A DNA stretch of 60,063 nt, counting the filler, from Hausera hauseri (lineage: Eukaryota): assembly GCA_046269625.1 (NCBI GenBank). It is 11 parts of 11 records of this genome, joined end to end, with 100 filler letters (N's around TTAATTAATTAA, not from the genome) between each part and the next. Parts side by side here need not be neighbours in the genome. Positions count along the whole stretch, not along the records: positions 21,169 to 28,053 come from JBJURY010055217.1; 10 more parts are not named here. One strand, written 5' to 3'. A program made the position numbers and the translations under genes. Positions 7,291 to 48,199 of this stretch are shown in pieces; the stretch's first letter is position 1; every line of letters begins with the position of its first letter. A model generated the notes under the pieces. It did no database searches. It was not told the origin of the DNA and worked only from the letters and a program-made list of their open reading frames with translations.

Positions 7291-7951
7291 TGCGATAAGT
7301 AGTAGAGTTATGTTTATCCCATTTTTGTTGCAGGAATAAGGCAGCGGCTTTGTTATCTACCATTGCTGGCGATTCTAGTTCTGCTTGTCTTAAGAATTCG
7401 GTATATGAAGAGGGTGCTCTCGTAACTCGTTGTACGGATACAGCCTCGTACTTGTCTGCAGCCTTACGAATGAAAAGGGTCTGGGGGCGAACATCAACCA
7501 CTTCATATGGTCCTTGACCAGTTCGTGTTAACTTCAATGATTTACCCTTTTTTGCAACGGGATAATGAATCATTACATAATCGCCAATTTTGTAGGCATG
7601 TGGGCGCGCTTTCTTGTTAAAGTGTTTCTTATATCCAGTTTTGTACTTCTCTTCAAATTCTTTAGCCTCATGTTGAAAATATTCTAGCCTTTTCAGTAGA
7701 TCTTGAAACTGATCGTCCATGTGATCACTAATTTTCAAAGATGACGGCAATAATTCAGTGTCTAGTGGTAACAGTGGCAAGCGTCCATACATCAGTTCAA
7801 AAGGTGAATGGTTAGTACCTTTCGTGGGTGTAGTGTTAACAGCAAAAGCGGTAGTCTTGAGATGAAGATGCCAGTCCTTTTGATCGTGTGCAACCTTTGT
7901 TGAAAGAATGCCCTGTATTGTTCTATTCATTCGCTCAACCATACCGTTACA
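7290..7951 (-). mobile_element. Ty3/gypsy integrase C-terminal half
   Basis: 'NGMVERMNRTI' (catalytic E), 'SPFELMYGR' and GPY/F motif 'GQGPYEVV'. Truncated by the contig edge. Confidence 0.92.
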
Positions 7952-9339: not shown

Positions 9340-10045
9340 ACAAGGTCAGTTGAGTTGGTCAATGACTAAACAAGAGCAAGAAAGTTAATTGCAAAGCCGA
9401 ATTTTGTACACAGCACTATTTATTCGGAAAATTTTGCTAGTATCAAAATGCAAAAGACGATTCTCAATTTTAACAAGCCGATTTATGTTGGAATGTCGAT
9501 ACTCGATTTGTCAAAAACACTCATGTATGACTTCCACTATAATGTCATGAAGCCAAATTTTCCAGACATTCAACTAATGTATATGGATACGGATTCATTC
9601 ATATATCATATTAGATCTGATGATATATTCAATGATTTTTATAATTTGGCAAATTTCTTCAATACATCAGATTATCCGAGAGACCATAAGCACTTTTCCT
9701 TGTCAAATAAAAAAGTTTTAGGGCAAGTTAAGGACGAAGTAAATAGCAAAATTATTACTGCTTATGTTGGACTTCGTCCGAAAATGTACGCTCTTAATGC
9801 AGATAGACAAATTAAGAAAAGGGCCAAAGGTTCAGAGAGATACACTTGAGAAACATATCTCGTTTCAAGATTACATTTCAGTCCTTAATAATTTCTCAAC
9901 ACTATTATCAGACATGGGATGAATTGTGTCACATGACCATGTTGTGACGACAAATGTACTACGAAAGAAATGTCTGAGCTTCTTCGATGACGAAAGATTT
10001 ATTCAATCTGATGGGATATCAACTTTGCCTCATGGACACTTTTAT
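9340..10045 (+). pseudogene. Protein-primed DNA polymerase B (Polinton/adintovirus type), C-terminal fragment
   Basis: 'NKPIYVGMSILDLSKTLMYDFHY', motif C 'YMDTDS', 'GLRPKMYA', 'KKRAKG'. Frameshifted tail ends in a FDD...LPHGH-like segment; AATAAA at ~10058. Confidence 0.9.
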
Positions 10046-15100: not shown

Positions 15101-16461
15101 GCCAGTGAAACATTGAAGTAGATGTCGGAAGGGTAAAAGAAAGCTTGCATGCACCGGAAACGTGTAATGGTTGTCTGGAAGCTGTAAATAGAGGTTTATA
15201 TTTGGATAAAGTGTATTGAGTTGGAAAGGTGAGCGGCAGTAAAGAAATCGCTGCACCTGAATCGATAATGATGTCTATGTGGCGAGTTGTTGGTAACTTA
15301 GTTACTGCTTTTACTGTAAATATAGAGAACGAAAGTTTTCGGCTGGTAGGAACTGGAGAATGGCTTTCGCCAGAACTCGCCGTAAGCTCTGGCGGATGTC
15401 AGAAAGTAAGAGAGAACGTCCGACGTTCGAATGTTGAGTTCTGCTTCTAAAGGTACAACCAGAGATACACTTATGTGCATCATGCTTAATCTTTTCGTGA
15501 TAAATGTAAATAGCGTTGTTAACGTGATACTTTTTGGTGTAAAATCGGCACTCGAGATGATATTTTTGTGCTTTATGAGGCAATCTATCATGGTAAAAAC
15601 AGATCAACGATCGCGTAGGAGAAGGTGATCGACATCTAGGTACAGAGCGTGTGCGATCGTAGACGGAACCCCTTTGTTGAGTCATTGAGATTTCATTTAA
15701 TCTATCGTTGATATTGTTTATTGTATTATGTAGGGCTGTGTTTTCGGCCCGCTGCTGTTATATTTGATATTCTAATGTGTTGTCGTTTGCTGTAAGCGCT
15801 GCAGAAATGATAGGCTGTGTGTTTAGGTTTAAGACCTCGTACGATTTGTATGCAAGTTCGACTAACGTATCTAGCGCCGTCGATTCCTCGACGACGGTAA
15901 GCAGGGCCCAGATCTGAATCTGTAATGCGTTTAAAAAGTAACGTCGTAAGAGATCAGAATTATTTTGTTTTGTAACGCCCAATGTTTACAGTTGAGCGAA
16001 AGAGGTTCTGAGAAAATCGGATGGCTTTGTGTACCCATAGCGTTATCATTGAAGAATCTATGGATTATGGAATCCATAGACGGTTCCATGAGTTTTAAAA
16101 CTGCGTTATAGAGATGGGTGTACGGGTCGGATTGTTGAAAGATGTCTAAAATATCGTGAAGAGAAGTCTTTACTGTGTTTGGTAAGAGGCAAAGTAAGAT
16201 ATAAGCTTTGGCTGAGGGATCAGTAATGTTGTTAGACTGCAGCCAAAGTTTATGAAAGTCAAGCCATGTTTTGCTGGACTTTTCATGGTCAATACAGTAT
16301 TCTGCGCACTGAGAAGAAGTGTGTTTGGCTGGCGGGATGGTAGATGTAAAAGTGGTAAAAGTTGATGGCGTGGTGACGGTCGTTGAATTTTGGCGAAAAG
16401 TGAAGGGTGTTGGTTTAGAGTTAGTTTTATCAGTAGTGTCAGTGGTGAGCGAAAAATTCAT
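12175..16461 (-). mobile_element. Decayed Ty3/gypsy LTR retrotransposon, CsRn1/Kabuki-like clade (gag-PR-RT-RH-IN)
   Basis: Gag 'SKTWLDFHKLWLQSNNIT...DPYTHLYNAVL' with degenerate CHCC knuckle 'CFYHDRLPHKAQKYHLEC'; protease 'IIIDSGAAISLLP' (~15260); RT 'KKDGSWRPCGDYRKLN' and 'YIDD'; RNase H 'TDAS' and 'TDHKPL'; integrase 'TTPYHPQSN'. Confidence 0.92.
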
Positions 16462-18630
16462 GCCACCACGGATACGAATGTGTACGTGAATAATGACATA
16501 TTGGATTTAAGGAACAGAAAGGTTGCAAAAATTGACATTAATTACAGGTAGATTGTTGTAAGTGAGGTAAAAGTCAGAGATATTAATGAAGTGTAGTACA
16601 TAATTGTGCAAGTAGGATGCGTCTGTAAGATACATTATTCTGTGTCCGGATAGCTGGTAATTATTTAGCAAAAAAAGAAAAGAGTGTTGGTGTAGGTCCT
16701 ATTAAGTGATATGGTGAAGGAACGAACCATTGAGTAACACCCACTGACATAGGAAAAACGGCCGGACAGTCGTTCACACTGTAATGTACCCGAACACCCG
16801 GGGTGACCGGGTACCCTCCGGTGGGTACAGTGACAGATATATTTTGTTTCAATTGTACAATCTTATTGCCCTCGGGAAAAGCAATTAACTGGATAGTATC
16901 AGTAGAAACTTTGTCAATCAGTGGCATTGTCGAAAGAATAAAAGTCTTGACGTACCCAGTAGATGTCGTTGACAAATGAGTGTCGAAAATTCCAAGATTG
17001 CACAAAAAATTGGTAATATTATGATCATACTTCCTGTAGTAAAATTCCAATATGAACCAGACTGCAGAACACATACAAAAGAAAACAAGGAATTTAAAAA
17101 TGATGTTGAATGCCAATCAAAATGAACGAGGGTGACCAGAAACTCAACAACACTGCTGCGCGTACTTCTGAACCATTCATATAGACTTATTCCATTACGA
17201 ACATATTGAACAAGAAACATCGATGATATCGATAAAACCATTTCCGCCAAATTACCACATGTATTGGGCAAAATCAAAAACAATATAACAAGGGAAGTAT
17301 CTCTTACTTTCTTTATCAGTTCCACGCGTATTTGGCCAGATAAGATGACTAAAATACTCTGAGTAATCGATGTTATCCGGTAATTTTATGTCAATAAAGG
17401 AAAGCAATTCCTTTCCGATGAATTGTGCACTGGTACAAATCAGTAGGAAAAAGTGAAACAACATCTGGATGGGACATATCGAAAGGTATTATAATTTCCC
17501 CGTCGTCAGAAAAATTGTCTATGGTAATAACTTTCCAACATCGTTGAATGTTAATAAGTATGAAACGGAATTTTTTAAACTTGGAGTATCTTTCAATATT
17601 GTCGAAAAAAACCAAATATTAGTTTCAACTTCACGTACGAAGTATGTTGGTAGAGAAGTAAAATCTGAGCCATAGTTTTAAAACATTTCTCGGAATTTGT
17701 ACAGTTGTAAAATAAGCCGAACAACGCAGCCCTCCATGCAGATAAATTGTAATACACCATGACAGCGATTGGAAATTTTTTTCCGGCGACAAAAAGCAAT
17801 AATTTAAGAACTTCAAGGGGGAAATTTCCTAATGTAAATTTCGAATCTAGATCGAAGTGTTGGTCGAAGATTGAATCAATACAGTTTACGCCAAACGATA
17901 GAGTTTGAAGGAATGTACGGAGTTGAGCAGTCAAAACAATACACCAGTTTTAATACGTTGAGAAATGTCGATAGAGTGGATGATGTGATAGTTAGCTTGT
18001 ATAATCTAACAATGGATATCAAACCACAAAAAATAATAGTATAGCGTGGTAGGATTTCGTTCTGAAGCTGTAAAAAGGAGCAAAACAGGTCATGATCGTA
18101 ATACTCAAACGTATCATGACGATAATACAAGTTAAGGACTGTCGATAACGATCGTAAGATATCGTTAGGCCGCAATATGGAAAAGGCGATATGCAAATAT
18201 GACAAGATATATTGTACTACCGGAGACTGAAAATCATATACAACAAATATGGCAACAGGCGGAAATAAAATTTATCTGTAAAAGATATGAAAAAAACAGC
18301 TGCCGACGAATTTGCAACCAATAATTAATCTTACCCTGTCGTACACTAGTTTCTCGAACGAGTACAGCGTAGAAGTGTCCATAAACACAGTATATGGCCT
18401 TGTAATTTCTGGTATGCAACATCGCCAAAACGGAACTGATAGGACCATTGACCGAATGCTTCAAGTTCCATTCGTATCTCGTATATTATCAACGACAACT
18501 CACCATGTGCCACAATGGTGTCATTGAGGCAAAGGGTTGCCATCGGCCAGAATCTGAGTTGCACAACAGATCTGGCACAATCTGCCCTAAATCGTGCTAA
18601 CGCAGTCGGTAAACACATATTGAGAATGAT

Positions 18631-21068
18631 TTAGACGATCGTGATCAAATTTTCCGTATGCATCTGTTCAATGCTGTCTTCCTCAAGTTCCATAAAGTCG
18701 AATACCCTTTTAACATTAGCATTTTCACATCTCTGCAAAATATCCTCGAAATGAGGAATCTGATGCAAAAGCGAATCACGATGCCACTGTGCCTGAGTTA
18801 TCATCTGTACTAATTCCCGCCGCCAGTTTCGGACATCAACACAGGCTTGAATGAATCTGATACGTTTCACTAATATTTGATTGAGACGTTCTCTAAGTTC
18901 AGCTGCTCTAATTGGAATACAAAGAAAAGGGGAGTGAAGTATTATACTGGCGTTGATCTTTGGATCTGCTAAACTTCTCTTGTCCAACGATGCCATTTGA
19001 AGAAACGGTCGAATTTTCGATAAGATAACATCTTCACTATGCCAAATTAGGAGATTTTCAAAGTCATCGGCACCGCAAAAAAATTCTAATAACCCTTTTA
19101 CTTTTGAATTGGCCCGCAGTGAATTGCTGAACATTTCGAATGTGGCATAATGAATGTAATAAAATACAGCGATCATTCCTAAATTGAATAGTGTTACATC
19201 AATATCATCTTTGACTGTTATGTATTGTGACTTTTCAAAATCGTTAAGTGTTCTCAACGAGTTCACTAAGATGATCACTTAAATGGTGATGACTGACACC
19301 GCCCAATTGATAATAATTCGGATTCTTTGTCATTCGGTAATAAATGAACGTCCATGTCAAATAATCTGCTGCATCTTGTTTGTTCTCAATCGTTTTTCTA
19401 AGGACCTCAGCATTAAAATGATCATGCAAATGATGACCTAAATGAGACTGAAGCGGTAGCGGTTCACAAAGGAATTTATCAGTAAAATCCTTCTTATTAA
19501 TCTGACGCATAATTATTGCCCTGGCATCGTCATATTGGACGCTATTTGTACTACCGATCATCTGGGTCAAATCAACAGCTGCATAATCATTGTACATATA
19601 ATCTTTGCCACTGTAAACTGGAGTATCCATGACAATAACCAAATGACCATTTGATGGAATTGACCAACACAAACTATAACTAACAACCAATATTTGAATA
19701 AAATGATTCGAAAACAGTTCCAGCATTTGATTGCGTTCATTATGAGACAGAGTTTGATGAATTAAAGCAATGCCGAATGTTAAAGTTTCAATTTGAATTT
19801 CATTGGTAATTTTGGCCATATATTCTTTCAATTGTGTTTCTGTTGCTCCAGTGAAATTCTGCTTATCGGACAATGCAAATCCCATCAGATTGAATTCTGT
19901 TATTTCTGTCTGCCTCATTGTTGGTGTAAAAATAATTATGGAACTATTCGTTGGAGTTCTAATTACAGATTGATAAATTGGTCCCGTCATAGCATTCAAC
20001 CGAGTAGCCGTAGGAGCAATGTTAAAATTCGTTAATTCAATATTAATTGGACAATGACGGACATTTGGATAGAAATTATACGTTGCCGCATTACTGCAAT
20101 CCAACCATTCACCAACATCTATGGCATTACTGATTGAATAAGACAAACCGATTAATCGTATTGGATTTTCAAGTTGTGAACTCATATATCTAGTTCTTGA
20201 ACACAAGTTCAAGTGTACTTCCATTGTGGTGACTATCGAGCAAGTGCAAATAATCTATGATAAACAAATTGATATTTTGAAGGCCTTTCTGTTCTTCCAA
20301 CGTCGAGACAACACATACCATTTTTCTGCCGGTGCTACAACAATATTTGCTTTGGCAATCATCCGTATATCGACATTCGTATTTCCTGTTAATTTAACAT
20401 TTTTTTTCAAACTACCGAATGTTTTCTTCCATTTACCATAGCCAATTTTAGCCGTTTCTTCAATTGCAGATATATAAACACAGTGACCTTCTGGTCCGTT
20501 AGAAAACAATCGCATAGTGGCAAATTCGGCACATTCCGTTTTCCAACTTCCCGTTGGTGCACCGAGAAAGACATTTTCATCGGAATTATACAATGATTCA
20601 AAACATTGCGTTTGAATTGCATTGATATTCTTCATTCGGTTGTTGTAAAATTGTTCGAATTCTTCATTTCTTAACACCTTAAATGGGAATTTATGCAAAT
20701 CAAGTAATTCCGTTGGCGGATGATTCTTCGACGGTAAAATTATTTTGAAAAACGTTAAAGGTATTTCCGTTTCAGATGCCAACCAGCGATCGGAGACAGC
20801 ACGAATAAAATAGAGCGGCGGTAATGGTTCAAACATTGGCACAAAGAATGTCAAAATACGGTCGTCATCTATAAATCGTTGTGTTAGTACAAAATATTCG
20901 TGATGTAAAATACTTTCACCCATAACATCCTCAACGAATATCCAAAATGCCTGCGAATTACCGTGATGTTTATCATTCTAACCAAAATCCGCGGTAATCG
21001 TCAATTCAACTTTCATCGTACTGCGTTGTATCGACTGTAAATGGCATTTCAATCTCAATATCGGTATA
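18631..21068 (-). pseudogene. SNRNP200: U5 snRNP 200-kDa helicase Brr2, C-terminal cassette fragment, intronless and frameshifted
   Basis: 'ILHHEYFVL', 'FEPLPPLYFIRAVSDRWL', 'PPTELLDL', Walker A degenerated to 'GAPTGSWKT', 'DAADYLTWTFIYYRMTKNPNYY', 'HLSDHLSELVENT', Sec63-like tail. Split over three ORFs with internal deletions. Confidence 0.9.
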
Positions 21069-21168: not shown

Positions 21169-22030
21169 ATCCTCCATACTCTGTTTTCTGGGTAATAAGT
21201 CCGCAAATGTTTATTCGGTTTATTCTGTCGTACTTCATAGAGGTCAAATTTTATTTTGAATTCTTGGTTTACGGGTAGCTTACAACATTTGTGTCGCACA
21301 CCGGCATGAACAGAACAATATTGTATTTTTGGAATTTTTCCATTTACTGCTTCGAAAACAATACTAATCTCTTGACCCTGAGTCAATCCTCTTTGAACAT
21401 TTACCTGGATGCATTGTTTTTCCTTATCTACTGAAATCGTTTTGATATTTTCCTCTAATAGACTTATATTTGGGTCAGTAGATTTTAGCATTTCGCCGAG
21501 TTTCACTTCGAATCGTTTGATCAAAGTGGAAATAACTAACTGAAGTTGTGGGTTTATTTCGATATAGACTTCCGATGAGTCGGATAAGTATAGTTGGTAA
21601 GTAAGGGTATAGATGTGCCCGAAACCTACGTCGCAGCACTGCTTATAATATCCGGATTCAAAATCGCAGTTTATCGCCTATTTTGTTGTTACATCGTATA
21701 GTATCACTTGAAATCTTCCGAAATCGTGATGTGGTTTCCATGTTTTAAATCCAATGCACACAGAATCGCGCGAAAAGTACTGAGCCTTCATTGATTGTAA
21801 CAAAATAGTGTCTTCGCGTTTTTGGATCTCTTCAGCTGTTGGTTTCTTCTTCGCTATGGCATTTTTTGCCTTTAGTCCACTTTTCCGTATTCCGTATACG
21901 TCTCCTAGCGTAGATTCATCGTCCCACCATTGAGTTTGTGTTCTTGGAGTATACGAAGCAATTAACGATAGTGCTAAAGCTATCTGAACGTATGATATCG
22001 GTCTAGCAATTATTGAAAAGGTTTTTATCT
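21169..22030 (-). pseudogene. Post-integrase Cys-rich FN3-like membrane protein, N-terminal part (homologue of 5566-7290 and 46788-48094)
   Basis: 'HYNLR' integrase-end motif, then signal 'RPISYVQIALALSLIASY' and repeats 'CDFESGYYKQCCDVGFGHIY' and 'YCSVHAGVRHKCCKLPVNQEF'. Confidence 0.75.
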
Positions 22031-25000
22031 CGTGTTGGCGTAAATTGTAGTGTTTATTGAGCCGTATCTCCGTCTTAACAACTCTGTACAGACACGACTT
22101 CTTCCTTCCTGTTTTTGTTAATGTATATCGTGGTCGGCATAGTTCTGGTAATTTCGTATGCCCTCTATCTGTACGAGTCAATTTTAACGACGTACCCTCC
22201 TTGTTCTAAATTATGCAGTTTCGTTTTCTTATCATATTGTTTTTTTAATTGTTCTTGATATTCTTTGGATAACTCCTTGGCGATTTCCCAACATTTTTGT
22301 AGTCGCGTCTTTAATACTTTTGCAAAATGTTGTTTTAAATCTTCGGAATTGACCGTGTATGGTGTCATTCCTAAGTCTGTGGGTAACATAGTTTCTCGTC
22401 AATACATCATGAAAAATGGCGTAAATCCTGTTGCCGGATGTGGGGTGGTATTGATTGCAAATTGAATTCCTTCTAAGAATTCGTCCCAATCTTTTTGGTC
22501 CTTAGCTACTACTGTTGATAGTATGTGTATGACAGTTACATTTATTCGTTCAACCATTCCATTACACTAAGGATGATACGCAGTTGTGGTTAACCTTTCG
22601 ACTTCGAATATTTTGCTAATCTTCTCGAATAGTTCACTGGTAAAATTTCTCCCTCGATCTGTCAATATTTGGTCTGGCGGTCCATATCGGCAAATGATTC
22701 TTCTAACTACATCTTCAGCCAAGTTTTCCGCCTTTTGATCAATTAATACTATAAATTGTACAAAATGAGTTAGTCGATCAATACAGGTCAAAATATATTT
22801 ATTGTTTTTGTGGGTCGTAGGGAGCGGTCCTACAATATCCATCGGCATGGCTTGCATAGGTCTGTCTAGTACGAGAATTGGTTTTAGCTCTGCCATGTAG
22901 TTCTTTGTCCTTTTCTGTTTAGTTGCGCATGCTTCGCAAGCATTTACCCTATTCTTTACATCAATATAGATACTGGGCCAAAAATATTTGTTCAATATAC
23001 TTTCCAACGTTTTTTTCCATGACATATGTCCTGCTAAATATGAATCATGTTCTGCCATTAAAACTTCGGTTCGTAAAACTTTTGGAATAACTATCAGTTT
23101 CCTTCCTTTACGTTCATAATATAAAATATCTTCGCCTCTTTTGACAATCAAGATGCAGTATTTGTGTCCGTGACGGTGTAAATGTTTCTTTAATTGTCGT
23201 ACTTTCGGTTCGATGTCCCTTTTGGCAAATTCTATGATCTGCTGAATAATTTTATCTTTTTTTTGTTCAATTGAGATTTTGATTGCCTTTTCCAGTGTCA
23301 GATTGCGTTAGCGATCTATTATTTCCTCGAGTTGAGTTTTTTTCATAACAGTAATAGCACTCGTCTTAGTTTTTAATCTTGATAGTGCGTCGGCATCTAC
23401 ATGCTTATTTTCTGGCTTATACTGAAATTTGATATTGTACCTAGAGATTTCTTCGACCCATCTGTTAAGTCTGCATGTCGGGTTATTTGCTCACCCTTTT
23501 AAATTCGCAACGGCTTTGTGGTCAGTGACAATTATAATTTTCTGTTTGTACACATAAACGTTAAAATGTCGCAGCGCTTCTTTAACGGCCATGGTTTCCA
23601 ATTCAGTGACGGAATAATTCTTCTCGGCCTTTTTTAAGGAACGTCCTCCATAAGCGATTGGGTGTTCCAATTCTTCATCTTCTCTTTTCTGGGCTAATTC
23701 GTATCCAATACCTTCTTTACTTGCATCTGTCTTAATCATCAATGGCAAATTGAAGTCTGGATATAGTAGAACTGGTTCGCTTGTTGGAATTTTCTTCATT
23801 TCGTCGAAAGCCTTTTGTTCGACATCTGTCCATTTCCATTTAATTCCTTTTTAAGTAGACGATATAAGGGTGCATTTATTTTCCAGTTGTCCGGTACATA
23901 AGTGGCATAATACCCACAGAGACTTAACCAATGCCTTAACTCCTTCTGATTTTTTGGCTCTATGCATCTGATATTTTGTTTAATAATGATTTATCTGGTT
24001 TTGATCCTTCTTCTTCAAGTATATGGACAGGGTAGAATACTGGATTTTGAGTCCATTTACATTTCTTCGGATTTAATTTAATCCGGTCTGTTCTAGTCGC
24101 ATGAGCGTGTGTTCAATATCCTTCAAATGTTCCTCTTCTGTCTTTGACGCTATCATTACATTATCTAAATATGCAAAGGCACTGTTTTGTCCCATTAACA
24201 TTTTGTTCATCATTCTTGTAAAAATAGCTGGTCCGGTAGTAATACCGAACGTCATGATGTTGAATTCGTAGACGCCATCGTGTGGTTTAAATGCTGTTTT
24301 GTATCGATCCTCATCCTCAATTTCTACTTGCCAATATCCGTATTGTAAATCCAGAGTAGTGAACCATTTCGCTCCTGAGAGTCTATCTAGAGCCTCTTTT
24401 ACTGATGGCAATGGGATAGAATCTTTCACCATAAGATTATTTAATGCTCTGTAGTCAATAAAGAATCGATATTTTGTAGTACCTTTCTTTTTAACCATGA
24501 GGATTGATAAATACCAAGATCTATAGCTGGGCCTAATTATATCGGCCTTAAGCATCCGTTCGGCCTCTTTTGTTATCTTCGGTAGCAATGAATGAGGTGG
24601 AGGTTACTATTTCGGCATCTTCTGATCCTCAAGATCTATTTCTTCATTTGAACATTGCTTTTCTTAAGCGGAAGGGTCAATTTTAATGCTTTTGCCCTAC
24701 CTACATCCTCGTCGTCTTTGGCAATGATTGATATATAGCGACACAACAATTCATAAAATTGACAGTAAGATTCAAGTGAAAACTTAGTTTCAACATGAGG
24801 TGGGAATTCGGCATACTTGTAAGGCTTTTCTTCAATAGTTATAGACGACACTCTATACGTATCTCCTAAAGTAGTATAAGCATGAAGCTTAACGGGGGTC
24901 GGCGCATTATTTGCTATTCTGCTCGGTACGCGACCAGAGTGTACTCTTGTCAGTGTATTACTGAGTGTTATATTAGGGTTTAATGTCTCCTTAGGTTCGA

Positions 25001-25480
25001 AATATACTGGTTGATCGTCATCTTGTTGAACTTGCGCATAAATTATTATCTCTGTCCTCGGTGGAACATTTTCATCTACTGGTATCCACACTTCTCCAAG
25101 TTTCCTATCCTTAGCGTTTCTTTCGCTTTATTTGGTTTGATTTCTATTAATTTTCCTGCTTACAAATCAATTGCCATATTAGGTGATCTTTTCAGTAGAT
25201 CGCACCCTAGAACTACGTCTTCAGTTAATTGTTCATAATTGCAAATTCGTGACAGAAAAAGTGTCCAACTATTTGAACTTCTGGGTTCCATTTGAACATT
25301 GGTTTTGACATTTGGCCAAAAGCTCCTGTACTTCCTGGATCCTTTGTANNNNNNNNNNCTCTTAGCGTTTGGGGTATTGAACCATTCTTAATGTAAGACA
25401 TATCAGAACCATTATCGATTAATGCGTAAACTTCCCATTCTTCAATAATGATTTTGGCGAAGGTTCTTCCTTCTATTACT
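22030..25480 (-). mobile_element. Ty3/gypsy pol (PR-RT-RNase H-IN), decayed
   Basis: PR 'YALIDNGSDMSYI'; RT 'YRFFIDYRALN', 'LDLQYGYWQ', 'AYLDN'; RH 'KTDASKEGIG', 'TDHKA'; IN zinc finger 'HDSYLAGH...CEAC', 'MDIVGPLP', 'LTDRG', 'TTAYHP'. Confidence 0.95.
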
Positions 25481-26148
25481 GTTCCAAAATAATTTGATGC
25501 AGCTTTTGGGCGTTTAGTTGCCGATATTTTATGTCCTTTGATTCGGATTTCCGGGGAGGATAATATGTTTTTCGATAATTGTTTCAGTTCTCCGTTTGGA
25601 TATAACTCATTGTTTTCGATGTACAACTATTCCGTTTCGTGTGTACTAATTAACGATTCTCGATTGTTAGTGTGTGGTTCTATATTCCGGAAGGTTTGTA
25701 TTCTTTGATTTCCCCAGACAGGCGGTCTAGTCTTTATATTCCGCGGTTCTGTCAGCGAATACAATATTCTGGGGTCATCCACGGGCTGTCGATAACACAT
25801 TTTCTGTAGGACTCCATAACGTTTCGTTCCTTCGTAGAGGTCTTCTAAACTAATTGTCCTTTTATAGATTTCTGTCTGATACGAACTCACTGATCGTTTG
25901 TCACAGTCTTCATAGACTGGGGCAGTAGGGGGTAACATAGGCAATGGTCATTTAATGACGGGATACGTCTTGTCTCTAGTTGTTCTTGGAAGTACTTCTC
26001 CTCCCTTAGGCTCGTCATCATCTGAATTATTTCTCCGCTTATTGGTTCTTGTGAATTTCCACTTGTACAAAAACATAGGCCTTCCTTTTCGTTTACGATT
26101 ATGATAACCGACATGAAGTTCTACGTCCGATTTCCATCTATTCTCTTA

Positions 26149-28020
26149 GTTTGCTTTCAAGAACTTCCCAAAAGGCGTTATGATTGCCGTCAGTATTTTG
26201 CACGAAAATCCGGTTAATGTAAATATTTCATAGCCATTTATTACCACTTGGATTGCGGCTTTAATCATTTGTATTAGGAAATATATCACTAAGAATCCCG
26301 AAGCAGCTCGTCAAAAGATCAAGAATCTACCCCAAATTTTGTAGAGAATTTCTATGGTTACTCGTTGGTAATGATTTACACCAAGCAAGGTTTCCCATTT
26401 AGCTTGATGTCCAGTATCGTCTACTGCGGAGGCTATGGCTCGATTTAATTCATGTGTCCGCTGTCGCAGAAAAGCGAGAAATTGTCTGAGGGGTTCAATC
26501 TCCCTCGGCCTATATATGCCCTTTTACGAGATGTCTTGAAACTTATCGTCGGTAATCCCTTTTGCATGATTTGTTCCTGTTAATTTATTTGGAGTGGCAG
26601 TAATACCCCCATTTGGCAAACTACCCCAATCCGATTCACTACGCATAAACATGGGTTCTGCCAAACTTGCTTTACAATCTTTAAGGAATGTTGGTCTAGT
26701 TACATTGTCTGATAACACTCTAGTAAGCTGCGTGGCTAACCTTGGGTTATTCTGGTAGATAACGTGGAGTTCCTGTATACAATATTTTTCTTCAACGTTG
26801 ATAGGTACATCTCTTTTTTTACAAGTAATTGGACCGAAAATTCATTCTCTCATGGGAATTATTGGTGAGGCTAGTTCAGGGTTGGAATAGATAAGAGACA
26901 GTTTTGTCCTCATGATTTCCATATCAAATTTATAATCATTCGTTATCATTTTGTGATATAACTCGGTTATTCCGACTTGCCCTGTGTAATAAAAGTAATC
27001 GTCCCGGTTTTTCAGGTAATCCTAAATACGAATATCCTGCGTTTCTAGCTTGAGGGTTTTCGCATTTATTTCCGTTTCTGTGACGAAAAATGATTCATAA
27101 TTAGTGGCGAACATCACCACTTTGCAACGGGAGATCATTTCTTTCTTAATAAATTTTAATCCATGTTGGTCAATGATCATTATAGTAGACGTGGGGTGTT
27201 CTCATACGTCCTTGCATGTCCTGGAGTTGCTATCGGGTTTATCTACATACCGTTTTCCGGTGGTTGCGTTAAATTTCAATTCTTTGATTTTGACAAAATT
27301 ACAGCTTCTTTCAGAGGGAGGTTCCCATATTATAACGGAACTTCTAAAAGCACAAGTTCCGTCTTGTAAATGGCATTTTTGATTCTCGGTGTATAGTTTG
27401 GTGACGCTAAGGAACATTAGTTTCTGTACTCGTATCTTCGAGTCATAGAAATTTACGACCACTACTTTTGCTTCTAGTCCTTTTTCGGTGTCATACTCTG
27501 CTCAATTACAATATCCATTATGCATGTATAGCCTTCCAACCACTACGTTATATGCCCTAATTATCTTTCCTGGTTGCATTGCCAGTTCCATACTATCCCA
27601 TTTTAGTCTTCCGGTTCCCCTGGCCTGCTTACAATGCTGGCGTTTTAAATTAATTATGATTGGAGGAGTAGTTTGTATGATTATTGAAGAATGTCTATGC
27701 ATTAATCCACATTGAAAAATGCTACGAGATCGTCTCAGCATACATTCCATTCCATGTAACGATATCAATTCTTGTTGGTGGTACAGAAAATAACTTTTCT
27801 CTCTCATTTCTATCTTATGCGGTTTGGCATCTTCACATACATCTAAATCCATTAGAGAATATTTCCTTCCTAGTTTAAACTTATCGCAATCGCAGACAGT
27901 AACAGCACCTACATGCTTTATTAGCATCATCAAAGTGAGTAAGCTGATTAACCAATAGACTTGTGTTGTTTGTTCCATCAAATATATCATCTTTGAATTT
28001 GATATAGCTTGTAATTGCAA
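26149..28020 (-). pseudogene. Chuvirus-like (class III fusion, gB-related) envelope glycoprotein, ~620 codons, disabled by point stops only
   Basis: Signal 'VYWLISLLTLMMLIKHVGA', then 'VCDC..YSLMDLDVC', 'ECMLRRSRSIFQCGLMHRHS', 'CHLQDGTC..VIIWEPPSERSC', 'CIQELHVIYQN', 'GIYRPREIEPLR', and TM region 'KIWGRFLIF*RAASGFLVIYFLIQMIKAAIQVVINGY'. Motif order matches my recollection of chuvirus-type glycoproteins. Confidence 0.85.
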
Positions 28021-28153
28021 TGTCTGGTTCCGTCGTTACACAAGGTCCACTTTNNNNNNNNNNNNNNNNNNNNNNNNNNNNNNNNNNNNNNNNNNNNTTA
28101 ATTAATTAANNNNNNNNNNNNNNNNNNNNNNNNNNNNNNNNNNNNNNNNNNNN

Positions 28154-30841
28154 GGATCATATTGTATTCTTTCAAGATCCGGAATCGAACACCTGCATAT
28201 GGACTGGAGTGGCGAAGAAACGAACTGGATCCAACTTATGGGTCTGAAGTGTCACTTTCCTGAAGCTCTTGAGGACAAATGTTAACCCCAACACATCCAT
28301 TTTGAGATATATGTCACTGTATTCTATGATTGTTTTACACTGGAATGCATGCCAGACCTTTTGTGCATGCTTGTAATCAGCAACACTAATATCTGTGTCT
28401 GACAGCCGACTGTAAAAGTCCTTTTCGGGTGGTAATGATGTTTCATCTAGTGAACCCTATGATGTTATATAATCATATGGAAAAACTCCTTTCTTTTTGA
28501 CTAAGTAAAATGTAGCTGGAAAGAACTTTTTGTTTCCTTTAGTTTATCTGATGGAATATTCTTGACGAGGCTATTAAGTGATGAACTCAAGAAACGGAAA
28601 CTATCTATGAAGTGGAGTTTAATTTTTGCTACAAATTTGGTAATTATGACATATTTCTCTTCGCTATATGGAATCACATCAATATTCCCTTTGGTGCTTC
28701 CAAGTTCTCTGAATATTAAATAGGAATCACAGCCACTTAGATTGTGGAAAATCACAAGCAGAAATATTACAGTGCAGAAGCGTAAATTGCATGAATTTCA
28801 TGCTGCGTCTCTACACTTGCCTGTTACATGGGGATAATCACAGACCTTGTAGTTGTCTGCTGTGAATGGTTTGCAACACATGTAGCATGTTGTTGCACTT
28901 CTCCATTCGAATTGTTCTTTCGGTGATATCATCATACTTTTAGGCCTCACATTTTCAATCCTATGTGCCAAATCTTCCAGGCAATGTGCAAAATTATGTG
29001 TTGCATTTGGACCCCTGGATAAATATGGCTCCTTGTCCATTCCGTTTGAATACATGCAAAATGATGATAGTTCATGAAGTTGGTATGCAGTCGTATTACT
29101 TTGCTGTGTATTTGGGCTGCAACTCTGAACTCGACTAAGGGTAAATTCAAAGTCTCAGTATACGACAAATTTCACTTTATGTATTTTCTCACACTCTTTG
29201 AATTCAACATAATCTTATTTGGGAAATTCGGTTCTGATGCAATGATTGTTGTTGCAATACATCGTATGTTCTTCCAGCTTCTCCAGACATGAGTAACCAC
29301 TGAAATGGTGTAAGCATCGTTTGCAAATTTTAAATCCTTTCTTATGTTTTGAAATTTTACTAGACGTTTAAAATTTTTGATCCGAATGAAATGCCTCTTT
29401 TCACCATCTTCTAGCAGGAGCAGATCCATATGGTCCACTAATTCAGCTTTGCACACTTTTAAAGAACAGAATTTGTCCGTTTTATCCAATCCAAAGATAT
29501 TGATGGATATCTGGTTCACTTGCTCAAATCTTTCGATTTCATGTATTGTTGGTGGAAATGCAATACAATTGAAATCATAATTATACTGAATGTTTTGATA
29601 TATTGAAACACATGAAGCATGCTTTTGATCTTTTACGACTGTGAATTTTGAAAGAATGGAATATATGAAGCACATGTTATCGTCATTTTAAATACTGACG
29701 CATGCTTCTTTTCAGTTCAGTCCATTCTGGAAGTTTTATATAAGAGCTTCTTCGAATCGGGGAGTACTTGTGTACATGAATGATCAAACGTTTTATGGCT
29801 GCAAGAGTCAACAGGTTCATCTTACCCTGGTTCACCTCAGCTTCTTGTATGAGTTTTGCATGTTCCTCACAAAGAAATTCTGAAATATTGCTGGCTTCTA
29901 ATATTGGTTTGTTTTTCGATTTGAAAGCCCTATTTGATTCTTCGCCCTCAACATTGGTGAATATGGCCTCCACTATTAGATTAACTTTGATGGCCTTAAG
30001 CTCAATCAATTTGTCTTGTAGAATTCGGGCAGTTTCATTCTTTGAATAATCGGGGAAGTCATGCAGTGTAGTTTGCCCTGTGGCAACTATGACATATCGC
30101 CTTATTTTTGTTTTGAGTGCACGATTCTCCGGATTTCTTATTCTTCGACCTTTGGATGGGATACTGGGATTGTCTGCCATCCGTTTCAATCCTGTATGAA
30201 CAACTGGTTGTACTGATGTTATTACAGGATTGGATACATTTTGAGAAACTGGATTCTTATGTTCATTAAAAATCATCTTGTTCGATTCGGTTGTGAAACC
30301 GCACAAATGAGCTTTATGATAATCATAAAACTGTTGATAGTCTGATCTGCTCACAATTTCACATCTTGGACAGATGAAGAAGTCCAGTTTGTTGAATCTG
30401 TATGCATAATATCGTTGCACTGTACAGTGGCAGTTCTGAGAAATGTGTATACTGTATGTAAAATCACTGTACAAATTACATGAGAAATTCTAAAATAAAT
30501 GTAGTTAATTTTTCATGAGAGCTAAATTAAAAACTTGCCATTTGTGGAACATATGTCATGATGGGTTTAATCTTGTAGAAGATTTCTTTATTGGCTGTTT
30601 CATACGAAGATAGATGATGTTTATGTGCATCACACAAATCTTCATAGGTGCTTCTGCTAACTGCCTTACAAGTTGGAGATAGAAAATATTCACATCTGTT
30701 GGAACTGAAACTGAAATAAAGTTTCATCACCTTGTGACATTTGTGTTCATCATCATAAACATTTGCCAAGCAGTCTATATAGAATTTTCAATTCTAAATA
30801 AAAGGTTAATTTTCAGGACAGCAAAATTTAACACTTGCCAT
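28154..30841 (-). pseudogene. Protein-primed DNA polymerase B, N-terminal two-thirds, with two short introns and a duplicated Cys/His N-terminal domain
   Basis: 'RSSYIKLPEW', 'CFIYSIL', endonuclease VII-like 'CYMCCKPF..KVCDYPHVTGKCR', ExoII 'FHNLSGCDSY', 'FIDSFRFLSSSL', 'KGVFPYDY'. ATG|GCAAGT intron-like segments at 30838-30794 and 30538-30490. Confidence 0.88.
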
Positions 30842-32711: not shown

Positions 32712-32899
32712 NNNNNNNNNNNNNNNNNNNNNNNNNNNNNNNNNNNNNNNNNNNNTTAATTAATTAANNNNNNNNNNNNNNNNNNNNNNNNNNNNNNNNN
32801 NNNNNNNNNNNAATTGATGTTGGATATTGATATGAAGTAAGTTTTTGTATACTTGTGTATATTTTATACATGTAGTACATTTCAGATTGAAAAGGCCTT

Positions 32900-35800
32900 G
32901 AGCAGACAGAATAACAAAGAATAACAATATGTACATAGTTACAATATTGCCACATGCCCGTGAGATAGTGTGTGTGGATTCCGTCTTCAAGAATGTGCCT
33001 CTTATCATCGAACCAATCGAGATTTTTCTTTTGCAACACAACTGTGGCAATCTTATGTTCCCGAGACCGGATCCTTTTCATCGCGCTGACTATGTGATTT
33101 TGCTCCCGCAACACTCTCTCAAAATCTCCAAAGCCAATGTCTTTAGCTAATGTGGCCCTTTGAACTCCTCGGCCCGCTTCTTTACCTGACCACTTACATC
33201 GATGGCGTACATTTTTGATCTCAACTCCACGAAACGGGTGATGATCTTCCAATTCGCCTTGTCTTTAAACTTCCCGAGGACCTTCTTGTTGGTAATTGAA
33301 TAATTTGGATGATCCTTCGAATAGTCTGAGGTATCCATATACTGCGGCAATTTTGCATGCTTTTCGAAGACACATCTGTGCGGATCTGGCATACGAAAAT
33401 GTCCGCGTCCATGTACATTAGCTGCAGCTCCTTGAATGTAGGGACCATGATGTTGTAATGAAAGTCATACATCAAGGTATTGGGTAGATCCAATATAGAT
33501 ATGCCCACATATATAAGCTTGTTGAACTCAAGTGATGTCTTGAGCATATGGATGTTTACCAGTTTCTCCGTGTAGACTGTGCTGCTGTGGAATTTGGGCT
33601 TAACGATGAGTTTCTTTTCCCTCTTCCAGTTACTTACCAGCTCAATGTTTATCCGGTTCCGGATGTTCTCCATAGTTTTGCCAAAGACCGAGTTGTTATA
33701 CAACTTGAATTGGTCCTTTTCAAACCCGTTCTTGGCATTGGCTGTCAACTGGGTAATAAGGTCTATGTATGGATTCAGCCATTTGGACTGGCTGAACTGC
33801 AGGGCCCCATGAATCCTGATGACTCGGAGTCCATTTTGGATGGCCTGTTGGAAATTTATGTAGTGGGCTACATACCTTTCCCTGTTTTCGAGGTGACAAA
33901 GCAGCTTCTTATGCTTACCATTTGGCGGCCTCTTGCTCTCCGGGAGAAAAGGCAGATGCTCATGCCTTGTGTGGATGCTATGTGGGTATTCCACGTCTAC
34001 CTTCAGTATGTAGCCCGTATCTCCATTGGCATCCATACCTTCAATATCCAGGAATTGCGACTGCTCCACTCACTAAAAATTATCATAGGGCAATGGGTTG
34101 CTCATTGTCCATCCATACAGATTGTTGGCATCCAGGTATGATATATATGAGGATTCCTCGGATGGATCATAATCTACCATGCATTTGTTATTGGCCTCAC
34201 TGTACCTGTGAATGGCTTGGCAGATTCCGCCCCTGATGCCTATCTCAATCATGAGGACCATATTGTAATCTTTCCAGATCTGGAGCCTTATGCTGGTATA
34301 GCGCAGCATAGCTGCCCAACTCATTCCTGGAGCTGTAAAGAAATGGGCTGAATCTAACTTGTGGCTCTTAAGGGTCACATCCCGGAAGCTTTCGAAGACA
34401 TCAGTAAGTAACAGCACATCTGTGAAGAGATAGATATCATTGTATTCCTCTATTGTCCTGCACTGGAAGATCTGCCATACTCTTTGGGCGTGCTCATAGT
34501 CAGCATCGCTAATATGACTGTATGACAACTGACTATAGACGTCCTCCTTGGCCAGTAATGAATCTTCATCCAGTGCTTTCCATGACGTTATATAGTCATA
34601 GGGGAACACTCCTTTCCGCTTCACCAAGTCAAATGTATCCGCAAAAAATCAATCCGTCTCCTTGAGCTCATCAACTAAAAGGTTCTTCACGAGGCTGTCC
34701 AGTAACGAGATCATGAAGCGGAAGCAGTCTATGAATCGAAGTCTAATGCGGCCCACATGCTTCGTGAAGGTGATGTACTTCACCTCACTATTTGGAATCA
34801 CATCAATGTTCCCCTCAAAATTACCCAATTCTCGAACAATGAAGTGGGAATCATATCCACTAAGATTGTGGAATACCACTGGAACATATGTACATGTCTT
34901 GCAGCGTAAGTTGCAATTGTTGCACACTGCGCCTCGGTACATGCCTGTAAAATGGCAGTGATCCCTGACTTTGTGATTGTCCCATGTGAATAGCTTTCTG
35001 CATAAGTAGCATGTTGATGCTTTGCGCCATTCACATTTTTCTTGCTGCGACATCACCATGTAGTCCTTATGTTGCTGCAACATGTCTTCAAGTTTGTGGG
35101 AATACTGTTCCAGACGCTGCATAAAATGTGCTGTTTCATTTACACCCTTGTATAGGTAGGGTTCTTTGTCCAGTCCTTTGGCATACATGCAATATGATGA
35201 TAACTCATGGTACTGGTATGTTGTAGTACTGCTTTGCTGTGGATTGGGGCTGCAACTGTGAACTGGACTGAGGATGGCCTCAAAATCACAATATATAACA
35301 GTCGGCACCTTCTGCATCTTCTCGAACTTTTTGAATTCCAGGTAATCCTCCTTGGGGAATTCTGCTCGGATGCAATAGTTTGTATTGCAGTAGGTTTTGT
35401 GCTCCACCAGCTTTTCTGCGGCTGTGTCTCCATTAAAATGGGTAAAACATCTTTTGCATATTTCCAGCCTTCATTTATGCTTGGATATTTGGGATCCTAC
35501 GAGGCGCTCAAAATTCTTGATCCAGATGAAATGCCTCGTTTTTCCATCATGTAGCAGGAGCAGATCCCTATGATCTTCCAATTCCTGCTTGCACACATGT
35601 AAGGGATAAAATTTGTCCTCCTCCAATCTGAAGATGTTGATGGAGATGTTGTTCACGCTTTTAAATTTCACGACTTCATCTAGACTTGGCGGGAATGAAA
35701 TACAGCTGAAGTCGTATGTGTGCTTCACTTTGTCATATATCCAAACTATGGAAGCATTATGTTGATCCTGGACTAGTTTTGACAAAACAGAATACATGAA

Positions 35801-36901
35801 GCACATGCTGTCCTCATTATGGACATTGATGCATGCCTTTTTCTTAACTATCCAATCAGGAAGCGGTATGTATGAGCTGCCTCTCATGGGAGAATACTTG
35901 TGCACATGCACAAGTAACCCCTTTATTGTTGCTAAAGTCCAACCGCTCTTCTTGTCCTGGCTTTCTTCGGCTTTACGGATAAGCCTTGCATAGTCATCTG
36001 TAATGAAATTCTTAATGTTAAAGGATTTCAATAGTGTCCTGTTCTTTGTTTTGAAGGCCCTATTAGACAGCTCCCCTTTGACATTGGTGAAGGTGGCTAC
36101 CAATTTGAAGCTCACCTTAAGGGCCTTCAGCTCCAACAAGTTGTCCTCGAGAATTCCTGCTACCTCCTCCCTTGAATATTCCAGGAAATTATGGAGCGAT
36201 GTCTACCTTACTGCTGCTATGAAGTATCGCCACACCGCTTTCTTTGGCTTTTTGATGGAGCATCTGCTACTACTTCTGATAGGCGTTTTGGTCCTGCATC
36301 AGGCCTTGCTCCCAAAGCAGGATATACAACTGGCTGTGCTGCTAAAGCAGGGTCTGCTGCCAAAGCTGGATGCTGGCCATTAAATATGACCCTTTTTGGC
36401 TTTGAATTGAAGTCTGTCAAATGAGCAATATAATCTTTGTAAAACTGCATGTATTCTCCATAGCATACAACCTCACATCCAGGGCAAATATAATAGAGGA
36501 GTCTACTGAATTTGTATTCATAATAGCTCCTCATGACATTGTGGAAATTCTGAGGGTTGTGTATTACACATGTGCAATAAACATATGAACTGCATCTTTG
36601 ATTTTTCTTTGGCACGAAAGTCTTTATTAGCATATTGGTACTGAATATTTATTTTTTCAACTTAGTGAAGGAAATCAAGTGCTGTTTATGGGCATTGTAA
36701 AAGTCTTCATAATTGGTTTGGCACATTACCTTACATGTAGGGCATATACAATACTAAACCCTGTTGTACATATGGCCAAAGTACTTCTTCATAACACTGT
36801 GGCAATTTTTCAGCTCGTGGATTTGAGCCAAAAATTCGCTGTAAAGTTAGCACATCTAAAATCAATCAATTATTTGAGGAGCACAATTAAAAACTCACCA
36901 T
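32900..36901 (-). pseudogene. Near-complete protein-primed DNA polymerase B (Polinton/adintovirus type) with few frameshifts
   Basis: ExoI 'VIYCDFE', endonuclease VII-like 'CYLC..VRDHCHFTGMYRGAVCNNCN', ExoII 'FHNLSGYDSHF', motif A 'YLDANNLYG', motif B 'KLYNNSVFGKT', motif C mutated to 'YMDAD', 'FDDKR'. ATG|GTGAGT intron 36898-36856. Confidence 0.93.
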
Positions 36902-37124
36902 TCGTTGAAGTGATTTTGGAAATAATTAAAAATATAGTCATACCACCATGTACTGCCAAGCTTACTGATTGGTTTTAATGTGCTTTTGATTTAATGCATC
37001 AGTTAAATTAAATAAAATTCGGCGNNNNNNNNNNNNNNNNNNNNNNNNNNNNNNNNNNNNNNNNNNNNTTAATTAATTAANNNNNNNNNNNNNNNNNNNN
37101 NNNNNNNNNNNNNNNNNNNNNNNN

Positions 37125-40100
37125 ATTTTTAATGAAAAAATTGTTAAATATTCAGAATGTAGAAGTGGTTGGAGATTATGTCGGATTATTGAACTTACAT
37201 TTACTGTAACCAAAACATATGAGATTATATACTTGACGGAAGATTATATATGCAAACACCCAGAGGCCTTCGTGAGTCAAAGTCTATTGTATATGTGCAA
37301 AATTCAGATAATAAATGTTTTTTGTACAGCATTCATGCATTACAAAGACATACGATATAATCGTCATCGACCAAATAGTTGCCACCAATTTATGCATGAA
37401 TTGAACTGTGAAGAAAGTGAAATACCAATGAAATTATCCGGTATTTTCCGTTTTGAGCAAATAAATCAACGCCTGGCAATAAATGTTTTCAAATACATTA
37501 GTGACACCAATGTTGTGATTGATCAGAATCAGGAAGTATTTGAAACCCAACATGTTGATGCTTTGTATCGTTCGAAAGATAATTTGTCAAGTATAATTGT
37601 TAACTTACTGGTACTTGAGGACTCAGATAGATTTCATTACGTTACTGATGTAAATTTAAATCGACTTTTGAACTTAACAGTGGGCTGATTCAAAAAAGTT
37701 GCAAATGGTGTCATATTTGTTTGATAGTTTCAGATATCAAAAAGCATAGGACAACCATGTTGAATTACGTGGTAGTCATAGTGAATATACAACATCGTAT
37801 GTCATGTCAACATCAAAAAGCTGGTAGTTTACTGACTAGTCTAAGCTTTTAGCTCCAGCTTTTGTAGTGTATTCAGATTTTGAATCTATCCCACCACCTT
37901 GTGATAGCCTTGACCAGAAACACATTCCTGCAGCTGCTGGCCTATTGTTGGTTCCATTAAAGGATATTAAACTACAACCACAATACTACTATTTCGTAGA
38001 GGATAACTGTATCCTTGATTATTTAACATGCTTGGACACCATAACTAAAACTGTTCTGATTCCATGTTATGATCGGAATGCCCATTGCCCTATGTTTTCA
38101 TTATCTGCTGAAGATGAAGATACCTTTCTTCAAATCAGACAGTGTTTCTTATGCAAAAATGAAATAAGAAATAAAGTTCGTTATCATGACCATTGTACAG
38201 TTGGAATATTGGTCCTGCATGTCAAACATGTAATGTTCAGAGGAAGGTTCGTATAATGCTTCCTGTTGTTTTTCACAATTTCAGAGGTTGCGATTTACGT
38301 AACATTATGAGATATGCTCTTAATCATTTTCCAAACAAAAAACCTACTACTTTCACATAAAGCAGAGAAATGTTTTTAGCTATGTTTGTTCATACTTGTA
38401 AAATGACAATTAAATTTATCGATTCCTATTAATTTATGCTTGAGTCATTGGACACTCTTTCTTCAAAGTTAGTGCACTGGCCTTTGGCATCTACTGTTTT
38501 TCCGGGGCAAACCGGTTATAGAAAGGGAATTTTTCCTTATAGTATTGTAACGTTATTGACTATCTTGGAAAGTACAATTGATTTACCACCAAATTTGGAA
38601 TGATGTTGATGATGATGAATATCGGTATGCTAGATATAATGGACTGAATTTAACTGTCGAAATTTACTTGATTACATGTTATATTATTTAAAACTTGATG
38701 TACATTTATTAGCAGACGTATTCAACAACTTTTTTCAAAGAGCTCTAAAATATAATGGTATAAATCCGCTTAATTTTATAACTCTTACTGGAATGTCATG
38801 GAGTAGTGCACTACGAACTTTAGAAGTAAATTTGGAATTGCTAAATTATCCGAAAATGTACATATTTTTTGTATATGGAATTAAAGGTGGAATAACTTTT
38901 GTCAACATGCATCATGTAGAGGCTACGAATGACTCCTTATTGTTGTATTAGAATGTGAATAACTTGTACGGATGGGCATTGTCTCAGCCGTTGCCACATG
39001 AGTGTTTTGTGTGGATATTTGATGAATACTGTTGACAAACGATTTTAAACAGGCTAATAGAAGCAGACACCGAAATGAGTCTTATTTGGTATGTGTTGAT
39101 ATCATAATACCATTGCATATTTATGATCTAAAGGATGATTTTCCTTTAACTTCTGAGAAGAAACGTCCACGGGGATCTAAAGATGAAAAACTATTGTTAA
39201 CATATGAAAATAAAATAAATTATATTATCCACTGGATACCTTTGCAATTTTATATAAAACTTGGAGCGGTGGTTACAAAGGTGCACATAGCAGTTTAGTT
39301 TTCTCAAACATGCTGTTTTTAACGTTACATTGATCAGAACTCTACAAAGAGTGCGACTGCATCAACCAAGTGTGATAAAGATTAATACAAATAGAAGAAT
39401 AATTCATTATATAAAAAAACAGTAGGAAACTTATTTAAATATTTAAATATACGAATATGTACCACGGAAAAATATTTGCTTACATACGCGAGCAAATTAC
39501 AGTTCATTAAGTCGTGTACAATCGACAACAATCTTGCCTTGGTGGTATGTCTTGATCGACCTATATATATCTAGAAGGTTGTATTAGATCTGAGTAAATT
39601 ACGCATGTACATCCGACAATATGTTGAGCTTCAAACTTACAAGCAATTGTTTTGATGTACACTATGCTTTTTGCAGGTGATACTGACAGCTTTTTTGTTA
39701 TGTAAAAATATAAACATAAATACATTATTGCAGAAGATGAAAGATGATTGTTTGTTAGATACATCAAATTACAGGCCGGGAAATCCACTTTATTCGACGG
39801 CAGTTGAAAATAAAATTTATTTAGTTAAAGGTAAAAGTTGTGGGGTTCTTCACTTTATTGAATGAATTTTTTTCCGCCATAAACGTTACAGCATGTTAAT
39901 TAGTGACAATTCCGCTAAAATGAGAGTTAAGGGAGTTTCATTAAAAAAAATAATATAAGTCATAGTGCATTTAAAAATACTTATATTCAGCAAAATGAGA
40001 TTCGAGTTGAACAGTGTCACATACAGTACATAAACCATCACTTATATACAGTTAAAAGAAAGAAAATTGCTTTATCATCAACAGACGATAAAAGACGTTG

Positions 40101-48094: not shown

Positions 48095-48199
48095 CAACTA
48101 CAGATCGGATTATCCTATCATCAGACAGAGAAAATGTTTTGTTTCAAAATGATGATCTGTCTTAGGATTAACCTTTATTTTTATTTCAGCAGTGTAAGT

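Follow-up and report, generated by a model that had tools for sequence, protein, structure and literature searches.

The window, by which we mean the whole 60,063-nucleotide stretch of Hausera hauseri DNA that was analysed, contains a decayed, dead retroelement copy on the minus strand of a short contig (21169-28053) with assembly spacers on both sides. An envelope gene (env) precedes a pol region with the order protease (PR), reverse transcriptase (RT), RNase H (RH) and integrase (IN), and a further cassette lies behind the integrase. The contig stops inside the open reading frame (ORF) at both ends, and a 10-N gap (25349-25358) falls inside the protease region. The parts of the element are as follows.

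27904-28053, minus strand: env residues 1-50, a leader with a signal-like hydrophobic stretch, at the contig end, with a stop at codon 6 and methionines at 22 and 26
26329-27903, minus strand: predicted class III fusogen ectodomain, residues 51-575, with five stops (PF24664, E 2e-42; cysteines; fold)
26149-26328, minus strand: membrane-proximal and transmembrane (TM) region, with one stop (hydropathy; a WG.F motif common to relatives)
25462-26145, minus strand: cytoplasmic tail or linker of about 230 residues, polar, with two stops and no CCHC knuckle; PTAP at 25929-25918
25157-25461, minus strand: aspartic protease, degenerate, across the 10-N gap, its C-terminal part in another frame (profile from relatives)
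24654-25100, minus strand: spacer domain in the protease-RT interval, homologous to the spacer of relatives (E 7e-12)
23851-24603, minus strand: reverse transcriptase, Ty3-like, frameshifted (RVT_1, E 6e-27)
23437-23832, minus strand: RNase H (Pfam, E 2e-31)
22075-23088, minus strand: integrase, with H2C2, core and C-terminal part (Pfam)
21171-22050, minus strand: post-integrase cassette, cut by the contig end, with a weak signal-like stretch and two FN3-like repeats
21803-21540 and 21461-21171, minus strand: the Cys-containing beta-sandwich (FN3-like) repeats of the cassette

From 28053 to 25360 the minus strand reads as a single frame of 898 codons with 10 stops, and the remaining five frames of the same interval hold 36-76 stops each. 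Signal, class III glycoprotein, TM, the tail of about 230 residues and the protease all lie in this frame. The first-pass annotation had read env, tail and protease in one frame broken by about nine point stops, and nine stops do lie downstream of 28020. The linker between TM and protease contains three stops in 243 codons, compared with 16.1 +/- 3.8 in base shuffles, none of 5000 of which was as low, and its stop rate is indistinguishable from that of env and RNase H-integrase taken together (10 stops in 1146 codons; Fisher p=0.49). Because the linker is both depleted in stops and decaying at the rate of these regions, it was evidently coded in the env frame. One stop, at codon 636 (26148-26146), sits directly behind the TM region, a position that could also mark the natural end of env.

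The protease of this copy has no Pfam match; a profile built from 24 protease motifs of relatives locates it in frame with env at 25461-25225 (E 1.7e-5), which upholds the earlier claim that env is in frame with a gypsy protease. Past the gap, pol is broken by frameshifts near 25230, 25120 and 24650, by a pair near 24080/23960 and by another near 22080, and the catalytic motifs of both protease and RT are degenerate. Among solved structures, Ty3 is closest to the RT and the RNase H-integrase (E 5e-31 and 3e-46, respectively), followed by foamy virus (E 2e-9 and 8e-22); HIV RT matches the RT at E 2e-7. The PTAP in the env tail resembles a late domain; P[TS]AP occurs in the env-protease linker of one of the 11 env-protease relatives scanned.

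Several comparisons assign the glycoprotein to a family. The Pfam model Monjiviricetes_fusion (PF24664) spans residues 36-634 (E 2e-42), 13 cysteines are kept in at least 90% of 104 aligned rows, and hydropathy places a signal-like stretch at the start of env and a TM at its C-terminal end. An AlphaFold monomer of the ectodomain, modelled with stops replaced by X, has a pLDDT of 84.8 and a 45-residue central helix. All 38 PDB fold matches listed for this model are herpesvirus gB (best E 4.7e-11), with low TM-scores (0.19-0.42) and large rmsd; among viral models the best match is a chuvirus-like G (E 2.4e-26), with TM-scores of up to 0.64 and related G proteins also present. Sequence-profile searches of the PDB gave gB in 33 of 37 matches. 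Env is thus a predicted class III fusogen with a chuvirus-G/herpes-gB fold; the first-pass annotation had called a chuvirus-like class III fusogen and proposed a fold search on the stop-corrected protein, and Pfam, AlphaFold and the fold searches on the stop-masked ectodomain agree with it.

Relatives of the element were sought through env. Among 1.84 billion representatives searched, 263 matched, and we scanned 14 of the best 16 (two fragments were left out) together with four weaker long matches. A protease follows env in the same ORF in 11 of the 14 top relatives, five also having RT and RNase H, and the remaining three end in env or just past it. Every relative with an env start (14/14) has at least 148 in-frame residues (148-1364) upstream of env and a hydrophobic stretch ahead of it. 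Gag signs, meaning a CCHC knuckle or a gag domain, lie upstream of env in six of the 14 scanned relatives and in three loci found at the DNA level (L002, L003 and L006). Where CCHC knuckles are present, they are all upstream of env and never in the env-protease interval, the place where a gag would, according to the first-pass annotation, have counted against a fusion. Bcl-2-like, ankyrin and ubiquitin-like matches occur in P0005, P0152 and L002, those to Bcl-2 and ubiquitin being below the Pfam cut-off.

The DNA-level scan identified three relatives among 214 candidate stretches. L003 has a whole Gag-Env-PR-RT-RH-IN ORF of 2693 codons, L001 has an ORF of 3426 codons that is open at its start, and L002 carries a Gag region and env in the same frame with a single stop separating them. 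L006, the best match of an RT-based scan of genome contigs, has a Gag-Env-Pol ORF of 2300 codons whose env is more distant. Intact relatives with the one-ORF layout exist, L003 and L006 being whole. Among 59 loci recruited by RT, many of them short, two (L006 and L056) have env upstream. Env scans found none in 100 stretches of viral contigs or in 75 of genome contigs, and an initial, weak search for long env homologues found none among 1839 candidates, a result overturned by the 263-match search. No LTR-like repeat was found on the element contig or in L001 and L003. One gypsy protein, P0135, has the reverse order: its integrase continues in frame into an env of this family that lies downstream.

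Phylogenetic placement is firmer for env than for pol. In env trees the H. hauseri sequence falls, on a long branch, inside a 17-row clade of env-pol polyproteins and fragments (support 99 with 105 rows, 98 with 34 rows); the 34-row tree, which includes no named Burro sequence, nests it with polyproteins bearing Bcl-2-like matches at support 97. Pol trees, in which its branches are long, do not put it within the env-pol clade: it belongs to a loose group at support 87 (60 rows) and has no resolved placement with 25 rows, though by RNase H-integrase score five of the six best among 24 are env-pol elements. Contigs of a public run, possibly from the sample of origin, cover all 30 bins of the element (22,764 placed), mostly below 95% identity, which indicates an old family of many copies; none of those listed spans env and protease, the longest listed being about 460 bases.

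Judged by sequence, the env-before-protease layout is inherited and not a product of chance, as the first-pass annotation had held in proposing an ancestral fusion: 11 of 14 top relatives run from env to protease in one ORF, and the H. hauseri env groups with them. Two stops speak against a single Gag-Env-Pol ORF, the one directly behind the TM and the one between the Gag region and env in L002. The fragmented assembly of a high-copy repeat, with an N gap inside the protease, might also point to misassembly, or to a chuvirus-derived insert nested by chance beside a gypsy pol. That explanation is largely refuted and we give it almost no credence: the gap does not separate env from the N-terminal half of the protease, the linker is depleted in stops, and the nearest envs belong to env-protease polyproteins, not to stand-alone viral G proteins.

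The position of gag bears on what the element encoded. The contig ends 34 codons ahead of the hydrophobic core of the signal, so gag is out of view rather than absent. Since all 14 relatives have a long in-frame part upstream and none has knuckles between env and protease, Gag likely lies just beyond the contig end, upstream in the same ORF. A Gag hidden in the linker was considered, the order ENV-GAG-POL being found in two mites (PMC13524379), and was rejected: the linker has no CCHC, no Pfam match and no match at E <0.08 among the proteins compared. The first-pass proposal of an Env-Pol product therefore holds in part. Env and pol do share a frame; because the ORF of relatives also includes Gag or other domains upstream of env, the product would be Gag-Env-Pol, not Env-Pol.

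An element that began with env, starting at Met 22 or Met 26 without an upstream gag, or one whose env ended at the post-TM stop so that env and pol were separate genes, would fit the codon-6 stop, the two methionines right before the signal, the stop at codon 636 and the long branch. The codon-6 stop and the methionines are compatible with an env-first start and unremarkable at the decay rate of this copy, at which, by a hand estimate, a stop in about 33 codons is expected about one time in four. The long in-frame upstream sequence of the relatives and a linker without signs of Gag also stand against these arrangements, which we regard as very improbable. That the element is a decayed member of the Gag-Env-Pol kind is the part of our reading in which we have high confidence.

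Two Cys-containing repeats are encoded by a reading frame behind the integrase. The window also holds the 3' half of a sister element (3858-7948, minus strand), in which the same repeats (E 2e-14) share an open frame with the integrase and have a clear signal ahead of them. The sister sequence runs from the integrase end through signal and repeats to a further domain bearing an FN3-like motif and then a TM, after which come two uncharacterised ORFs. In the H. hauseri copy the post-integrase hydrophobic stretch is under the hydropathy threshold, a frameshift separates the cassette from the integrase, and the cassette TM would lie beyond the contig end. Of the seven relatives that extend past the integrase, six have a signal-like stretch there and, further on, a TM. 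The exception is L006 (401-7303), which is without a post-integrase cassette; it is binned with a bacterial genome, likely because of contaminating host DNA. The FN3-like motif pattern is present in P0002, P0004, P0152 and L001 and absent in P0013 and L003.

One repeat, modelled from eight rows, folds into a seven-stranded sandwich (pLDDT 87.3), and FN3 domains match it best in structure (Z 8.8, rmsd 2.7 over 87 residues); as this Z is only middling, "FN3-like" describes a fold and is not evidence of function. Foldseek with the same model gave no match at E<=0.001 (best E 0.015), and sequence searches with the post-integrase domain gave no significant Pfam match, the only leads being contactin-1 at E 0.4 and Atlas scores <0.9. 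A second membrane protein with FN3-like domains is therefore predicted to follow the integrase, where it likely serves as an attachment or host-modulating partner. No report of a fibronectin-type cassette in gypsy elements was found in the literature searched, although RepBase, figures or supplements may describe one.

The window holds other elements as well. An ordinary decayed gypsy element of a different lineage, with the order gag-PR-RT-RH-IN, lies at 12367-16506 (minus strand), and intron-free, broken pieces of an SNRNP200/Brr2 helicase, likely a retrocopy, lie at 18631-20977 (minus strand). Broken genes for a protein-primed-type DNA polymerase B and endonuclease VII occur at 28154-30489, 32764-36648, 9370-9849 and 37077-37688, and we take these pieces to be Polinton/adintovirus-like. 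An ORF similar to an RNase T-family exonuclease ORF (E 1.6e-6) is present twice, at 48095-49296 (plus strand) and 54267-54884 (minus strand), the copies being 77% alike; such an exonuclease ORF follows the polyprotein in L001, and DEDDy exonuclease ORFs occur in rotifer LTR elements (PMC5408684).

We propose, as the probable overall explanation, that the H. hauseri element is a decayed Ty3/gypsy copy with a class III env ahead of the protease, likely from a Burro-type Gag-Env-Pol ORF, whose Pol was likely left on the tail of Env. In this model a single polyprotein would weave through the ER membrane. Ahead of env, the hydrophobic stretch would act as an internal signal at which signal peptidase severs Gag from Env, a cleavage comparable to that between core and E1 in hepatitis C virus (PMC5402940); no relevant literature was found on signal-peptidase processing of a Gag-Env-Pol retrotransposon. 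The Env ectodomain would then fold in the ER lumen and, past the TM, the tail, PR, RT, RH and IN would be cytosolic, until a second signal behind the integrase sent the FN3-like domains to the lumen, anchored by their own TM. If the internal signal is cut, this TM topology would leave Pol joined to Env rather than to Gag, and, with the env TM on one side and the second membrane protein on the other, the enzymes would likely be tethered at both ends as they are made. Pol would reach the budding membrane on the Env tail, which keeps, in modified form, the first-pass idea that Pol travels through Env; clustering of Env would then let the protease release RT and IN. We place this Env-tethered packaging of Pol only a little above an even chance.

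Two other topologies or routes deserve weighing. The hydrophobic stretch before env might be an uncut anchor, so that Gag, Env and Pol form one chain that crosses the membrane twice, and some gB-type envs are indeed flanked by two TM domains instead of a signal and a TM (PMC13524379). In both this copy and its relatives, however, small residues end the stretch a few positions ahead of a conserved DC motif, as in cut signals (judged by eye), and we think an uncut anchor quite improbable. The second route keeps the same Gag-Env-Pol ORF and has Pol freed early by the protease, or made from a spliced RNA that skips env, and taken into cytosolic particles by way of Gag or RNA, with Env as an accessory. 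Foamy viruses package Pol independently of Env, which is a precedent for a Pol that does not travel on Env, and the presence of two to five protease motifs behind env in many relatives could allow such early release. The ORF is nevertheless continuous in each whole relative found, and we consider this route unlikely, though the least so of the alternatives. Polyproteins with two to five protease motifs are seen in L001 (2-10282), P0152, P0004 and P0007. In L001 and P0152 further membrane segments lie between these motifs, among them an additional signal and TM cassette in L001, so that these chains would cross the membrane several times.

Extending Env-tethered packaging by analogy, Burro-type elements may be flavivirus-like enveloped retroelements, with a polyprotein that crosses the ER membrane repeatedly, Pol packaged by Env and a second, FN3-like glycoprotein. 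Packaging by Env would then bring in Pol one-to-one with Env and with Gag, no Gag-Pol product being formed, and the FN3-like glycoprotein would partner the fusogen as an attachment protein or a mimic of a host receptor. We offer this as a tentative reading that we judge somewhat less probable than its converse.

The gene order itself is already known. In Burro, a giant gypsy element of planarians described in 2019, gag and pol flank a mononegavirus-like env that is in frame with them (PMC6431247). Nematodes, bryozoans and flatworms have GAG-ENV-POL gypsy elements with gB-type env, and 114 gypsy elements with a chuvirus-like glycoprotein are reported from arthropods (PMC13524379). These reports contradict the first-pass premise that env-bearing gypsy elements are ordered gag-pol-env and that chuvirus-like glycoproteins belong mainly to BEL/Pao; that premise is out of date, and the layout alone is no longer surprising. 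The element differs from canonical errantiviruses, in which env is an ORF of its own at the end of a gag-pol-env order, by an env that is upstream and in frame. It shares the glycoprotein family PF24664 with BEL/Pao elements that carry a chuvirus-like G (PMC13524379) and differs from them in its Ty3-like pol, its upstream env and its matches to gypsy-type Pfam families only, and the env tree sets it apart from the DUF5641-env protein P0031.

With the HSV/gB-type errantiviruses of Nematoda, Bryozoa and Platyhelminthes it has in common a Ty3/gypsy pol and a gB-type env placed before pol, and the env segments of Schmidtea resemble its env clade, by eye, in motifs and cysteine spacing (PMC13524379). 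The main text of that account does not use the terms "single ORF", "polyprotein", "fused", "fibronectin" or "FN3". The published descriptions of env between gag and pol, in the portions available to us, give the order and no mechanism for packaging the enzymes. If the topology proposed here holds, Pol would be packaged while tethered to Env, by a route that differs from the Gag-Pol of retroviruses. Conservation of the FN3-like membrane cassette suggests a surface with two glycoproteins, which would bear on passage from cell to cell. The predicted cassette and the proposal of Env-tethered Pol are what is new here relative to the literature searched. Sacco et al. 2022 reportedly describe nematode NERVs with a continuous gag-env-pro-pol ORF; like the element, NERVs place an RNA-virus-type glycoprotein before pol (via PMC13524379).

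Burro is the closest comparison. Its env matches mononegavirus glycoproteins of arthropods and fish and lies in frame between gag and protease (Burro/GYPSM1), and it too has a spacer domain between PR and RT (PMC6431247); the spacer of the H. hauseri element, which has no Pfam match, sits where Burro has a dUTPase-like domain. The Bcl-2-like, ubiquitin-like and ankyrin matches of the close relatives are a further likeness (PMC6431247). Burro proper is distinguished by giant size, by BCL2, MATH, BIR and ankyrin domains and by its planarian host (PMC6431247). The H. hauseri copy, whose upstream part lies beyond the contig, is compact from env to integrase, with one protease and no extra domain detected. 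The available parts of the Burro account mention no post-integrase FN3-like membrane protein and propose no topology (PMC6431247). With its env in frame with the downstream protease, apart from point stops, as in Burro-type single ORFs, the H. hauseri copy is likely a decayed example of the Burro-type, GAG-ENV-POL layout.
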